A stretch of 10,816 nucleotides of DNA from the UHGV virus genome UHGV-0110205; one strand, 5' to 3'. The notes beneath the pieces were generated by a model. It was not told the origin of the DNA. It saw nothing but the letters and a program-made list of their open reading frames with translations, and did not search any database. A program made the translations under genes and the position numbers. Shown here piece after piece: positions 45 through 10,816 of this stretch. How positions within the stretch are numbered: position 1 is the stretch's first letter; every line of letters begins with the position of its first letter. The stretch is from a virus.

Positions 45-1205
45 TTACCTCGCATTTAAGTAAACTACGTTCTCCTCTTGTGCCGTATTTGTGCCATTGC
101 GACTTATAATCGCATCGATTTTGCTCGCGTGCTCGGTGAGATGCCCGGCTGAAAGGTGGGCGTATCTTTGAACCATTTCGAGAGTTTCCCATCCTCCCAT
201 CTCTTTAAGCGCAAGAAGAGAGACACCGGACTGAACCAGCCAGCTTGCCCAAGTATGCCTCAGGTCATGGAAGCGGAAGTTGCTAATGCCTGCCCGCTTT
301 AACGCTCCCTTCCATGCCTTGTTGCTGTCGGTTCTCATCTTCCTTACCGCTGCTGTTTTTGTTCCGTCGCTTCGGTAGGCAGGTTTGGTGTGGACAAACA
401 CCCATCTCTTATGGAGACCCTGCTGTTTTCTTAATATCTGGCATGCGGTTTCGTTAAGAGGAACTCCGATCGCATTGCCAGCTTTTGTTTCATCAGGGTG
501 CATCCATGCCATTTTCTTATCCAGATCGACCTGTGACCACTCAAGGTCTGTAACGTTGGAACGGCGAAGGCCTGTCGTGATTGCAAACATGACCACAGGG
601 AAGAAATGAGGAGCAATTTCTGCAAACAGGCGCTTCGACTCCTCCTCTGTAAGCCATCTGATTCGTCCATTCTTAACGCGTGGTGTTGATATTTTGGGCG
701 CCCTGTCAAGCCATCCCCATTCAACAGCCATATTGAGAATAGCGCGAAGTATTGCCAGATGCCGCGTCTTCGTTCCTTTGCTTGCCAGCTTTGGTTTATA
801 CTCCGGCACTGGCTTGCCAAGCCGCAAACACCTGTCCCGGCTCATTTCCCAGTTCAGGCGATGGCGGCGGTTTTCCATCCCGTCTACCGCCTCCATTATT
901 TTTTCTGTTGTTATGTCAGAGAGAATGGTTTCTCTGAAGTGCAACATCCAGAACGATATAATGCTCTTGTCATCATCAATGGACTTCTTATCCGATTTCT
1001 CACGCAGCCACCGTATGCAGGCTTCCTTGAATAGCTTTTTCGGCGATTCCCCGAGATTTTTTACTCTCCACGCTTCTGCTTTCAGACGATCGTGAAGTTC
1101 TTGCGCTTGCCTTTTGTCCGATGTTTCAAGAGAGCGTCTAACTCTTGATCCATCTGGCGCGACGAAATCGCAGTGCCACGTGCCACCGCGTAGTTTGATT
1201 GACAT
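45..1205 (-). CDS. int: Tyrosine-type phage integrase (P22-like Int family)
   Basis: 386-aa ORF; C-terminal catalytic region HDLRHTWASWLVQSGV...MVQRYAHL (R/H-x-x-R...Y); N-terminus and internal blocks resemble P22 Int from memory. AGGAGG lies 7 nt upstream of ATG 1205. Adjacent to tRNA 3' end. Confidence 0.95.
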   Translation of the reverse strand: MSIKLRGGTWHCDFVAPDGSRVRRSLETSDKRQAQELHDRLKAEAWRVKNLGESPKKLFKEACIRWLREKSDKKSIDDDKSIISFWMLHFRETILSDITTEKIMEAVDGMENRRHRLNWEMSRDRCLRLGKPVPEYKPKLASKGTKTRHLAILRAILNMAVEWGWLDRAPKISTPRVKNGRIRWLTEEESKRLFAEIAPHFFPVVMFAITTGLRRSNVTDLEWSQVDLDKKMAWMHPDETKAGNAIGVPLNETACQILRKQQGLHKRWVFVHTKPAYRSDGTKTAAVRKMRTDSNKAWKGALKRAGISNFRFHDLRHTWASWLVQSGVSLLALKEMGGWETLEMVQRYAHLSAGHLTEHASKIDAIISRNGTNTAQEENVVYLNAR

Positions 1206-4640: not shown

Positions 4641-4934
4641 TCAGTCATTACTGATAGCGCCATAGCGTGAGCGGTAATTACGCAGGCGCGGGTCAATTTC
4701 AGGGAAGTGGGTATATGTGGCTTTGCGGAATGGTCGGATTGATGTCTGGTAAATTCGATCGCGTTCTTCTTTCTCTGCAAGCCATATACAGTGGCGAAAT
4801 TCCTTTTCCTCTTTCGTTTCCTGCGGTAGCGACATTATTCGATCGTAGTTTTTTCTGAATTTATCCAGCACCTCCGATACGGAATTGCCGGAACAGCGGC
4901 GCGCGTCGTCCGCACCATACAGAGGCGCTGGCAT
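4641..4934 (-). CDS. abc2: Abc2-like anti-RecBCD protein (recalled similarity to P22 Abc2)
   Basis: 97-aa [29 protein letters not shown]...; AAGGA 7 nt upstream of ATG 4934. Located downstream of erf/ssb as in P22-type recombination modules. Family assignment is from memory. Confidence 0.6.
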
Positions 4935-7639: not shown

Positions 7640-7891
7640 TCAGGCAGCCTTGTTGTAAATGTTGCAGGTATCAAGTAAGTAATTAGATGGAGCGCCATAA
7701 ATTATGAACTCATCGTTTGTCGGGTCCATCTCCATCTCTTGGCCTATTGCCATTCTTGCGTCAGTGTCATCAGCGGCGAAGCATAAAACAGCCCACGCCC
7801 ACATTGTTTTAAAAAGAACTGCAATTGGCTGTGGTTTTACTGAATTTGCGTTAGCGCGAAAATCACAAATCGCACTTTCATGAAATTCCAT
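7640..7891 (-). CDS. Hypothetical protein, 83 aa, immediately downstream of N (position of ral in lambda)
   Basis: GAGGTG 4 nt upstream of ATG 7891; begins 9 nt after N stop. C-terminus ...YNKAA faintly recalls lambda Ral (...NNKAA), but the rest does not obviously match. Confidence 0.55.
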   Translation of the reverse strand: MEFHESAICDFRANANSVKPQPIAVLFKTMWAWAVLCFAADDTDARMAIGQEMEMDPTNDEFIIYGAPSNYLLDTCNIYNKAA

Positions 7892-7899
7892 ATCTCACC

Positions 7900-8232
7900 T
7901 CAATCGTAATAAGCTGGAATTGATTTTCCGCGTTGCTTCTGGCGGCCTGAACAAGTCACACCAATTTCACTGCGTGGCTTGCTGTACCATGTGCGCTGAT
8001 TCTTGCGCTCAATACGTTGCAGGTTGCTTTCAATCTGTTCGTGGTATTTAGCCAGCACCGTAAGGTCTATCGGATTCAGTGCGCTTTCTACTCGTGATTT
8101 CGGTTTGCGATTCAGCGAGAGAATAGGGCGGTTAACTGGTTTTGCGCTTACCCCAACCAACAGGGGATTTGCTGCTTTCCATTGAGCCTGTTTCTCTGAG
8201 CGACGTTCGCGGCGGCGTGCTTGTGCATCCAT
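7900..8232 (-). CDS. N: Antitermination protein N (lambda N family)
   Basis: 110-aa ORF MDAQARRRERRSEKQAQWKAANPLLVGVSAKPVNRPILSLNRKPKSRVESALNPIDLTVLA... is near-identical to recalled lambda N, including the Arg-rich boxB-binding motif. GGAGA 5 nt upstream of ATG 8232. Confidence 0.95.
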   Translation of the reverse strand: MDAQARRRERRSEKQAQWKAANPLLVGVSAKPVNRPILSLNRKPKSRVESALNPIDLTVLAKYHEQIESNLQRIERKNQRTWYSKPRSEIGVTCSGRQKQRGKSIPAYYD

Positions 8233-8475: not shown

Positions 8476-8506
8476 GCCCTTCTTCAGGGCTTAATTTTTA
8501 AGAGCC
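8476..8506 (-). promoter_or_regulatory. nutL (boxA + boxB) N-utilisation site
   Basis: Minus strand reads GGCTCTTAAAAATTAAGCCCTGAAGAAGGGC. boxB GCCCTGAAGAAGGGC is identical to lambda nutL boxB; boxA GGCTCTTA is one mismatch from CGCTCTTA. Confidence 0.7.
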
Positions 8507-8545
8507 TCACCTTCATGGTGGTCAGCGCGTCCTGCTGATGGCTAA

Positions 8546-8574
8546 ATAGTACGATTTGTACTTTATCGAGTCAA
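8546..8574 (-). promoter_or_regulatory. PL early-left promoter (-35 TTGACT, 17-bp spacer, -10 TACTAT)
   Basis: Reverse complement of 8569-8574 is TTGACT and of 8546-8551 is TACTAT. Faces nutL and N. Spacer contains the palindrome AGTACgatttGTACT. Confidence 0.5.
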
Positions 8575-8620
8575 TACAAAATGTTCTAAATATAACTACT
8601 TTTTTATAACGCTTTGTATT
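8548..8620. promoter_or_regulatory. Candidate OL operator sites (15-bp AGTAC-N5-GTACT type)
   Basis: Perfect palindrome AGTACgatttGTACT at 8548-8562. Degenerate copies AATACaaaatGTTCT (8573-8587) and ATAACgctttGTATT (8606-8620), spaced 25 and 33 bp. Same motif class recurs at OR. Confidence 0.35.
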
Positions 8621-8635
8621 TAATGGGTTTATATT

Positions 8636-8669
8636 TTGGAAAAAGAAAACCCGACGCTAAGGTCGGGTT
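8636..8669 (-). terminator. Rho-independent terminator downstream of the repressor gene
   Basis: 8-bp stem aacccgac/gtcgggtt (8648-8655, 8662-8669), 6-nt loop; minus-strand U-tract uuucuuuuucc (revcomp of 8636-8647). 30 nt after the cI stop. Confidence 0.55.
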
Positions 8670-8699: not shown

Positions 8700-9359
8700 T
8701 TAACTAAATGTCTCTTCAGGCCACTGGCTGGCGATAACTTTCCCTACTACGGAACAGCTATCATTGCATGGAATCATTGGATATTGCGGGTTTAGTGGTT
8801 GTAGAAACACCTGACCGCTATCCCTGATTAGTTTCTTGAAGGTAAACTCATCACCTCCAAGTCTGGCTATGCAGAAATCACCTGGCTCAACAGCCTGCTC
8901 AGGGTCAACCAGAATTAACATTCCGTCAGGAAAGCTTGGCTTGTAGCCTGTTGGTGCGGTCATGGAATTACCTTCAACCTCAAGCCAGAATGCAGAATCA
9001 CTGGCTTTTTTGGTTGTGCTTACCCATTTCTCCGCATCGCCTTTGGTAAAGGTTCTAAGCTCAGGCGAGAACATCCCGGCCTGAACATGAGAAAAAACAG
9101 GGTACTCATATTGTTTTTTAACGGGGGCAGATGAGTATTCGCCAACAGGTGAAAATGTACCGTCGTGGTTGAATGAGACGTTATCAATACCAAGGTATTT
9201 AAACACCACACCAATCTCGTCAAGAGATGGATGACGAGATCCGCGCAACCAGTGACCAATTCCACCCTGCGTCATACCAAGCTCTTCAGCTAACTTCTCT
9301 TGAGTTATGCCGAGCTCTTTCATTCTGGATCTAGCCAGTTCATACCATTTCATTTTCAT
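8700..9359 (-). CDS. cI: Prophage repressor, CI-like (N-terminal HTH plus C-terminal LexA-type S24 autopeptidase domain); not lambda immunity
   Basis: From ATG 9359 ([37 protein letters not shown]...): XRE-type HTH; C-terminal domain with Ala-Gly (HVQAGMF), Ser (EGNSMTAP) and Lys (FTFKKL). Start could be 9353 or 9401. Divergent from cro. Confidence 0.9.
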
Positions 9360-9368
9360 ACCCTTATT

Positions 9369-9442
9369 ATTACGCTCTGTACTAAAACCATCCATGCACA
9401 AGATGTATTTTTTGTTTGCATTCTAAAAGTACATATCGTATT
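9369..9442. promoter_or_regulatory. Candidate OR operator sites (same 15-bp motif class as OL)
   Basis: TTACgctctGTACT (9370-9383), TGCACaagatGTATT (9394-9408), AGTACatatcGTATT (9428-9442); spacings 25 and 34 bp. The last overlaps the PR spacer and -10. Confidence 0.35.
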
Positions 9443-9444
9443 AT
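9416..9444 (+). promoter_or_regulatory. PR early-right promoter (-35 TTGCAT, 17-bp spacer, -10 TATTAT)
   Basis: TTGCAT at 9416-9421 and TATTAT at 9439-9444; about 27 nt upstream of the cro ATG; SD GGAGGG at 9462-9467. Confidence 0.5.
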
Positions 9445-9470
9445 TGTTTCATGGTTACTATGGAGGGCAT

Positions 9471-9686
9471 ATGAGCAACCTACGAAAATATCGAGAGTCA
9501 CTGAATATCTCTCAAACAACACTTGCTAAGGCAGTTGGATGCACACAGGGAGCTATCGGACATTGGGAATCTGGTCGTCGCTTCCCAGACCTTAAAACAT
9601 GCCGTGCTCTTGTTGAGTGCCTAAACAAGTTAGGCGCAAAAGTCAGTCTTGATGACGTGTTCCCGCCGGAACACAAAGCCGCTTAA
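9471..9686 (+). CDS. cro: Cro-like HTH repressor
   Basis: 71 aa from ATG 9471 (MSNLRKYRESLNISQTTLAKAVGCTQGAIGHWESGRRFP...), XRE-type HTH. GGAGGG 4 nt upstream. The ORF-track N-terminal extension crosses the operator region and is rejected. Confidence 0.85.
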   Translation: MSNLRKYRESLNISQTTLAKAVGCTQGAIGHWESGRRFPDLKTCRALVECLNKLGAKVSLDDVFPPEHKAA

Positions 9687-9694
9687 GACATTCC

Positions 9695-9726
9695 CGCTCT
9701 TACACATCCCAGCCCTGAAAAAGGGC
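9695..9726 (+). promoter_or_regulatory. nutR (boxA CGCTCTTA + boxB GCCCTGAAAAAGGGC)
   Basis: Both elements match lambda nutR as recalled; located just after the cro stop. Confidence 0.75.
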
Positions 9727-9805: not shown

Positions 9806-10084
9806 ATGCAACTTACAAGTACTCGCAAGAAAGCGAATGCAATTACAAGCAACATCCTGAATCGAATTGCTGTACGTGGTCAGCGAAAGGTTGCCGACGC
9901 GTTAGGGATTAATGAATCGCAAATTTCGCGATGGAAAGACAGCTTCATCCCCAAAATGGGAATGCTTCTGGCTGTTCTTGAATGGGGTGTTGAAGACGAG
10001 GAGTTGGCGGAACTGGCTAAGAAAGTAGCCAGAATGCTGACAAAAGAAAAAGCCCCGAAGAACGGCGAATTCTTCGAGGCCTAA
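9806..10084 (+). CDS. cII: CII-like transcriptional activator
   Basis: 92 aa from ATG 9806 with lambda-identical SD AAGGA; C-terminal ISRWKDSFIPKMGMLLAVLEWGVEDEELAELAKKVARMLT parallels lambda CII; N-terminus diverges. Confidence 0.85.
   Translation: MQLTSTRKKANAITSNILNRIAVRGQRKVADALGINESQISRWKDSFIPKMGMLLAVLEWGVEDEELAELAKKVARMLTKEKAPKNGEFFEA
9839..9852 (-). promoter_or_regulatory. TTGC-N6-TTGC direct repeat (candidate CII-binding site / PRE -35 region)
   Basis: Minus strand reads TTGCttgtaaTTGC, inside the 5' end of cII as in lambda PRE. Distance to the lambda-like -10 (AAGTAT near 9790-9800) is longer than in lambda. Confidence 0.25.
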
Positions 10085-10286: not shown

Positions 10287-10816
10287 TGATTACAGGCATA
10301 ACCCTGTACAACATCAGGAGGCATCCAGTATGGGGTATGTCTCTATACACCGCCAGTTTATGGACAGCAGGCTCTATAAGGACTCTCAGGCAGTACATCT
10401 TTGGCTTCACTTAATCCTCAAGGCTAATCACGAATCTACTGTCGTCAATACGGATATCGGTCCGATAACTGTTGATCGCGGTCAGATGATAACTGGACGC
10501 CCGTCGCTGGTCAGAGAAACATTCATCCCCGACAACAAAGTTCGGAGCTTATTACGGACTTTTGAGTCGAAAGGGATGCTTAATATTTGCTCGATGGGGA
10601 AGAAATTTAGCCTGTTTACAATCGTTAAATATGACGATTTTCAGGCAAAAAATTGTCCAACGGTTGTCCAACGGTTGTCCAACGCAAACACCAGTAATGG
10701 CGCGGCTCTCAGCGGAGATTGTCCAACGGTTGTCCAACGGTTGTCCATAAACAATAATATAAATAATATCTCTAATACTGACGTATTAGAGAGTGCCACA
10801 GCAGATAAAAAGTCTG
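10268..10816 (+). CDS. O-like replication initiator, N-terminal part (runs off window end); contains ori iterons
   Basis: Open frame from ATG 10268 (AGGAGG 6 nt upstream) to window end, 183 codons, no stop. Alternative start ATG 10331 also has an SD. Missing from ORF track because it has no stop. Confidence 0.8.
10654..10790 (+). repeat. Replication origin: six 11-bp direct iterons (TTGTCCAACGG) in two triplets plus AT-rich region
   Basis: Iterons at 10654, 10665, 10676, 10720, 10731 and 10742 (last degenerate TTGTCCATAAA), separated by a 33-bp spacer, followed by aaacaataatataaataatatctctaatact. Lambda-ori-like architecture inside the initiator gene. Confidence 0.7.

Follow-up and report, generated by a model that had tools for sequence, protein, structure and literature searches.

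A predicted right operator region of the VT2-Sakai (Sp5) immunity type in a lambdoid prophage

The right operator (OR) of phage lambda consists of three 17-bp partly symmetric sites between the divergent cI and cro genes, with three matching sites at OL. The lambda OR spacings are 24 and 23 bp, and lambda cI activates PRM from −42. The operators of VT2-Sa, which belong to the VT2-Sakai (Sp5) immunity type, have been given as AAGTACATATTGTATTT (OR1), ATGCACAATGTGTATTT (OR2) and TATTACGCTCTGTACTG (OR3) (PMC10742460, Table S1), and for the VT2-Sakai immunity region both that paper and Yin et al. 2015 (PMC4587872) refer to Fattah et al. 2000. In AP005153, the record of a Stx1-converting phage, three 17-bp sites in the cI-cro spacer are annotated as 'putative operator', together with a putative major rightward promoter (PR), a putative maintenance promoter (PRM) and three further operators at PL. 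No footprint or binding of the cognate repressor on VT2-Sakai-type operators was found in the literature searched. The operators of phage 933W, which have been footprinted (Koudelka and Tyler groups; PMC3317979), are 15-bp dyads G(A/T)AC-N5-GT(A/T)C, with oR1 reading CGTACTGAAAGTACG; they lie 24 bp (OR1-OR2) and 32 bp (OR2-OR3) apart, oR3 overlaps the cI start codon, OL has two sites, and the 933W repressor was reported to bind without cooperativity.

The window, i.e. the whole stretch of viral DNA analysed here (10,816 nt), is the early region of a lambdoid prophage. Its genes and nut sites were assigned from open reading frames, Pfam matches and hairpins as follows:

45-1205, minus strand: integrase (ORF and Pfam assignment)
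7900-8232, minus strand: N-type antiterminator (Pfam N36 match)
8476-8490, minus strand: nutL boxB, lambda-type, hairpin GCCCTGAAGAAGGGC
8700-9359, minus strand: cI repressor, 219 aa (Pfam HTH_3 and Peptidase_S24), start ATG 9359
9471-9686, plus strand: cro, 71 aa (Pfam HTH_3), ribosome-binding site GGAGGG at 9462-9467
9712-9726, plus strand: nutR boxB, hairpin GCCCTGAAAAAGGGC
9806-10084, plus strand: cII, ORF downstream of nutR
right end of the listed genes: O-like replication gene, carrying 11-bp iterons

The cI and cro genes are divergently transcribed, with an intergenic region of 111 bp. Both boxB hairpins match those of lambda nutL and nutR. The antitermination module is classed as lambda-type because of this boxB match and the N36 Pfam match of ORF 7900-8232.

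Three predicted operator sites were located between cI and cro and three at OL (no strand is assigned to the dyads):

9368-9384: OR3, repressor-proximal, TATTACGCTCTGTACTA; exact TAC-N5-GTA core, centre 9376
9394-9410: OR2, middle, ATGCACAAGATGTATTT; degenerate CAC left half-site, centre 9402
9427-9443: OR1, PR-proximal, AAGTACATATCGTATTA; exact TAC-N5-GTA core, centre 9435
8547-8563: OL1, TAGTACGATTTGTACTT; perfect AGTAC dyad, overlapping the PL −10
8572-8588: OL2, CAATACAAAATGTTCTA; overlapping the PL −35 (TTGACT, 8574-8569)
8605-8621: OL3, TATAACGCTTTGTATTT; ranked seventh with a matrix trained on OR

All six are 17-bp sites of the class A(G/A)TAC-N5-GTA(T/C)T. Among the 12 half-sites, AGTAC and AATAC occur four times each, and ATTAC, ATAAC, AGAAC and TGCAC once each. 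The initial annotation had described three sites of one motif class between the repressor and cro; these are present, and the 14-15-nt spans given for them fall within the symmetric 17-mers. The spacings of 25 and 34 bp that it reported are corrected by the site centres to 26 bp (OR3-OR2) and 33 bp (OR2-OR1), and at OL the centres lie 25 bp (OL1-OL2) and 33 bp (OL2-OL3) apart. Its further statement that OR mirrors OL stands for the sequence of the promoter-proximal sites, since OL1 with the PL −10 and OR1 with the PR −10 form a 20-nt inverted repeat (8545-8564 and 9426-9445) with 18/20 positions (90%) complementary, but fails for the spacing order, which outward from the promoter is 25 then 33 bp at OL and 33 then 26 bp at OR. 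As a result of this unmirrored order OR2 ends 4 bp short of the PR −35 and the close pair at OR is OR2-OR3; given spacings of 33 and 26 bp, wider than those of lambda, OR2 does not overlap the PR −35, unlike its lambda counterpart. The PR-proximal site was correctly placed over the PR −10, as OR1 covers the PR spacer and five bases of TATTAT (9439-9444), and the repressor-proximal site, put at about 10 bp from the cI start, begins 9 nt from the ATG at 9359. The roles proposed for these two sites, OR1 for the former and PRM/OR3-like for the latter, agree with this geometry.

The repressor encoded in the window is 97% identical to the cI of AP005153, with residues 1-46 including the helix-turn-helix (HTH) identical, and 96.3% identical to the VT2-Sakai cI (NC_000902). 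Cro is identical to that of AP005153 at 70 of 71 residues, again with an identical HTH, so that the DNA-recognition residues of both proteins are the same as in this record, which is 93% identical. When mapped, the three putative operators annotated in the cI-cro spacer of AP005153 equal OR1-OR3, the three at PL are equivalent to OL1-OL3, and its PR and PRM assignments are those made here. The VT2-Sa operators match as well, with identities of 15/17 (OR1), 15/17 (OR2) and 16/17 (OR3); the two, two and one differences are central or outermost and lie outside the TAC/GTA cores, and at OR2 they affect central bases only. Comparison with related immunity regions thus agreed with the sites first noted, which coincide with the AP005153 putative operators and with those of VT2-Sa; at the level of sequence the earlier observation is confirmed and its interpretation as operators is supported.

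On these comparisons the OR of the window is assigned to the VT2-Sakai (Sp5) immunity type, and the feature is, with a probability of about 0.88, the OR/PR/PRM region of a lambdoid prophage with that predicted specificity. Other members of the type (AP005153, Stx2 phage II AP005154, Nil2, 2851 and the PA phages) have the same repressor and three sites in the same order. In Stx phages of this type cI and OL are separated by additional genes amounting to approximately 1.3 kb, whereas in the window OL lies directly downstream of cI. The N gene, nut sites and integration module of the window are also of other types than in VT2-Sakai-type phages, and no stx context is seen in it; within the one window, antitermination thus appears lambda-type whereas immunity appears VT2-Sakai-type.

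The recognition helices of cI (TQGGIGHW) and Cro (TQGAIGHW) are near-identical, which fits competition of the two proteins for one set of sites. Residues ~85-218 of cI (window 8700-9110) form a C-terminal domain near-identical to that of lambda cI (PDB 3bdn, E = 1e-95), from which lambda-like dimerization, cooperativity, looping and RecA-stimulated self-cleavage are expected. The protein is a mosaic, in which a lambda-type C-terminal domain with few substitutions is joined to an N-terminal DNA-binding domain of other specificity. Differences from lambda lie in the recognition helix (GQSGVGAL in lambda, TQGGIGHW here), in the operator (TATCACCGC... in lambda, ATAC-N5-GTAT here) and in Cro, which is an HTH_3 protein of the 434/P22 kind and does not have the lambda Cro fold.

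For conservation among close relatives, 80 IMG/VR loci with cI 98-99% identical were fetched, of which 78 were alignable. In positions 9360-9470 of these 78, variation was seen at 16/60 non-operator positions and at 2/51 operator positions, the latter being the central bases 9402 and 9435 only; OR3 was invariant. The T-run at 9408-9413, between OR2 and the PR −35, varied from T5 to T8, and with its length the OR2-OR1 centre distance ranged from 32 to 35 bp, while the OR3-OR2 distance was constant at 26 bp. A corresponding count at OL was dropped, as 4-5 of the 78 aligned loci carried unrelated DNA downstream of cI; because of this contamination the polymorphism statistic was limited to OR. The frequent OL variants in the aligned IMG/VR loci (8556, 8611 and 8612) all lie in the central N5.

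Promoters were predicted as follows:

9415-9444, plus strand: PR, −35 TTTGCA/TTGCAT (9415-9421), −10 TATTAT (9439-9444), putative start near 9451
−35 8574-8569, −10 8551-8546, minus strand: predicted PL, the −10 overlapped by OL1
9366-9394, minus strand: putative PRM, −10 AATAAT (9366-9371), −35 TGGATG (9389-9394), start 9359

PR was found in a sigma-70 consensus scan with 9/12 matches and is predicted from the consensus alone; an equivalent TTGC(N)-17-TATA(C/T)T was seen in relatives. The PRM −35 is poor (3/6 consensus) and its placement is accurate to 1 nt only. The PRM −10-like hexamer at 9366-9371 overlaps OR3 and is made from an OR3 half-site, so that the outer sites lie on the divergent predicted promoters, OR1 on PR and OR3 on PRM. 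As anchored, 11 of 13 relatives have a TATAAT-like hexamer exactly 6 nt 5' of the conserved first ATG; the window has AATAAT and Proteus TATAAT, and TATTAT, TATCAT or TATGAT occur elsewhere. In the Oslo phage the arrangement TATAAT, 6 nt, ATG was read once the sequence was re-anchored on the first ATG, and in L102 the hexamer-to-ATG gap is 7 nt. This 6-nt distance implies a leaderless cI mRNA from 9359, with the A of the cI ATG as the probable first base of the PRM transcript.

The cI start differs between public records, being the equivalent of ATG 9395 in AP005153 and Dewey (231 aa) and of 9353 in Nil2. TTG 9401 and ATG 9395 were rejected as starts: the upstream extension is unconserved, and in-frame stops are present in the relatives L104 and L105. 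ATG 9359 is favoured because of the conserved M-x-M-K-W-Y and these upstream in-frame stops; the longer ORF of some public records would cross OR3. A second cI ATG lies 6 nt downstream of 9359 and is preceded, 8-10 nt upstream, by a GG-rich stretch, which could serve PRE transcripts.

A switch of the following kind is proposed. The A(G/A)TAC-N5-GTA(T/C)T dyads would bind dimers of the prophage cI and of Cro. Repressor on OR1, predicted to be the best site, would block the PR −10 and spacer and thereby switch off cro and the rightward lytic operon. Repressor on OR2, whose centre is at approximately −43 from the putative PRM start and which adjoins the weak −35, would most likely activate PRM. 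Repressor or Cro on OR3 would cover the PRM −10 and lower cI transcription. The PRM transcript would start at the A of the cI ATG and be leaderless, and dimerization, pairwise cooperativity, OL-OR looping and RecA-stimulated self-cleavage would follow lambda. Lambda is also matched in the overall plan of three 17-bp partly symmetric sites between divergent cI and cro with three matching OL sites, in the position of OR1 over the start of the PR −10 and of OR3 over PRM, in the leaderless cI mRNA (here predicted) and in the centring of OR2 approximately 42-43 bp upstream of the PRM start.

At 33 bp, OR1 and OR2 lie further apart than the 24 bp at which lambda cI cooperates, and their distance varies among close relatives, so lambda-style cooperativity between OR1 and OR2 is not assured. 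The sites could thus be true operators with an occupancy logic unlike that of lambda, either with OR2 coupled to OR3 or, as in 933W, with no OR1-OR2 cooperativity; repression of PRM would then follow almost at once on its activation, with low repressor levels and ready induction of the prophage. Such a logic is in keeping with OR2-OR3 being the closest pair at OR, with the polymorphic OR2-OR1 and fixed OR3-OR2 spacing, and with the promoter-proximal position of the close pair (25 bp) at OL, and low repressor through similar OR2/OR3 occupancy has been reported, by different routes, in two other Stx-phage immunity types (PMC5977221). Against it, 33 bp corresponds to approximately 3.1 helical turns, so that dimers on OR1 and OR2 would face the same side and the flexible lambda-type linker could allow them to touch; the conserved −43 placement of OR2 speaks for the importance of PRM activation; and the same layout is found in many non-Stx prophages. 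We consider a logic of this kind unlikely. A related and equally speculative idea is that the wiring of a lambda-type cooperativity module differs here, through OR2-OR3 pairing or through a reach across three turns; it is raised because a family-wide spacing and a fixed OR2 CAC half-site are joined to a lambda-like C-terminal domain. If true, this wiring would give stronger negative autoregulation and easier induction than in lambda; this would be of relevance, since Stx2 production in Sakai-type phages is under the control of this same immunity module.

The identity of the sites as repressor operators, with OR2 among them, was assessed by chance tests and by comparison with distant relatives. 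The exact core TAC-N5-GTA occurs three times in the 10.8 kb (OL1, OR3 and OR1) versus 0.82 expected, and 6 of 200 shuffles reach three. With one mismatch the core is not enriched in the window (26 found, 26.5 expected); the core by itself is therefore little proof, and cross-validated 17-bp matrices were used instead. Matrices were trained on OL only or on OR only and 10,800 positions were scored. The OL-trained matrix ranked OR1 second, OR3 fifth and OR2 14th, and the OR-trained matrix ranked OL1 second, OL2 sixth and OL3 seventh. Seven positions scored at least as high as the weakest OL site, versus 0.62 in shuffles, and the six operators account for all but one of these seven. The initial annotation had held the recurring architecture on both sides of cI to be hard to explain by chance; this cross-validation between OL and OR bears it out for the set, but not for OR2 taken alone, which by sequence is inseparable from chance, with 14 matches at its score versus a shuffle mean of 5.8 and maximum of 14. 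A further match, AATCACAAATCGCACTT at 7861-7877, is located within ORF 7640-7891 (minus strand), just downstream of N; ranked fifth with the OR-trained matrix, ahead of OL2 and OL3, it may be a chance match or an extra weak site.

The distant set consisted of one genome per species, scanned with an alignment of the cI N-terminal domain alone, plus Salmonella phage vB_SosS_Oslo and Proteus phage Pm34. It comprised prophages of Moellerella, Providencia, Proteus, Superficieibacter, Scandinavium, Yokenella, Kosakonia, Silvania, Buttiauxella and others (approximately 10 enterobacterial genera), with N-terminal identities to the window of 50-87%. The tblastn repressor matches HK106 and HK542 (70%) and phiON-2011 (51%) were dropped as having other N-terminal domains; such matches are uninformative for operators because their score is owed to the lambda-like C-terminal domain. 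Three xTAC-N5-GTAx sites lie between cI and cro in all distant relatives but one, with a constant offset from the cI ATG and spacings of 26-27 and 33-34 bp, and the position and half-sites of OR3 are kept in 12 diverged relatives. The exception is L094, a Xenorhabdus prophage (N-terminal domain 63% identical), in which a single clear TAC-N5-GTA site was seen, upstream of 1501, so that not every member of the wider family has the three-site layout. In a phylogenetic footprint from a MAFFT alignment of 13 OR regions, columns at least 85% conserved made up 25/51 in operators and 3/60 outside (Fisher p = 6e-8). Of the columns in half-site cores, 20/24 were conserved to this degree, versus 8/87 elsewhere (p = 4e-12). 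This footprint is the main independent support for the operators, and it rescues OR2.

A reading in which only OR1 and OR3 are real, OR2 being a chance match or a promoter-related sequence that does not bind repressor, could appeal to the 14th rank of OR2, to its score within the range of the shuffles and to its CAC in place of TAC. The pattern CAC(AA)-N3-GTAT is nonetheless held at 26-27 bp from OR3 in the window lineage, Oslo, L093 and L097-L105, though the surrounding spacer has fully diverged, the exceptions being a GAC half-site in the closely related L095 and L096 and a degenerate right half in Pm34. In close relatives the central base of OR2 alone varies, and a weak OR2 that depends on cooperativity is usual in lambdoid phages (PMC3317979). 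Loss of OR2 from the set is accordingly very improbable, and OR2 is accepted as an operator because it is conserved in relatives. That the conserved blocks are merely the PR, PRM and PL hexamers (AT-rich −10s), with the likeness to OL due to shared promoter sequence, is hardly credible, for although OR1, OR3 and OL1 each overlap a −10-like hexamer and GTAT(N)AT resembles TATAAT, conservation spans both arms of an 11-bp-wide dyad including the arm distant from the hexamers, the motif is present in OL2, OL3 and OR2, which have no matching −10, the common recognition helix of cI and Cro is what competitors at one set of sites should have, and the footprinted 933W operators are of the same motif class.

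Several of the distant relatives (Oslo, Pm34, the Proteus, Kosakonia, Yokenella and Buttiauxella prophages and others) share with the window the layout, the spacings, the OR2 CAC half-site and the distance to the cI ATG. They differ from it in repressor N-terminal domains that are only 50-69% identical and in a half-site flank of ATAC, not GTAC. The central bases and spacers of their ORs are unrelated, so they probably represent different immunity specificities within one family.

The 933W operators are related to those of the window in motif, and the recognition helix pattern is related too (SKGVSKW in 933W, TQGGIGHW here). The two systems differ in the number of OL sites (two in 933W, three in the window), in the order of their OR spacings, which is reversed, and in the position of oR3 relative to the cI start. 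The 933W immunity type, with its helix S41-K42...K46 and two OL sites, was rejected for the window on the 20% identity of the cI proteins and the three OL sites. The annotated 933W oR1 (phage 933W record L114, region 4776-4846) fits the window operator motif despite this low repressor identity, and cross-recognition between the 933W and VT2-Sakai types may occur. The nearest characterized system is VT2-Sakai/AP005153 by descent, lambda OR by logic and, by operator chemistry and among footprinted operators, 933W.

As a lambdoid right operator the OR feature is ordinary, and public records already predict and annotate it. The immunity region of the window is of a known and very common prophage type, with VT2-Sakai-type matches in 1222 of 5426 complete E. 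coli genomes, and there is little new in it. For annotation, the operator coordinates are fixed, the likely PR and PRM are placed and ATG 9359 is supported as the cI start. The point of interest is a lambda-type cooperativity domain acting, as predicted, on sites 33 and 26 bp apart, which would bear on the ease of induction of Sakai-type Stx phages.

Two further elements were observed in the window. Inside the O-like gene there are five direct 11-bp repeats TTGTCCAACGG, at 10653-10685 and 10719-10740, one copy of which ends in ...ACGC; this is the place expected for lambdoid origin iterons. Between OL3 and the cI stop codon, at 8648-8669, lies a G+C-rich hairpin with T-runs on both strands, which looks like a bidirectional terminator and is a candidate for the end of the PRM transcript.
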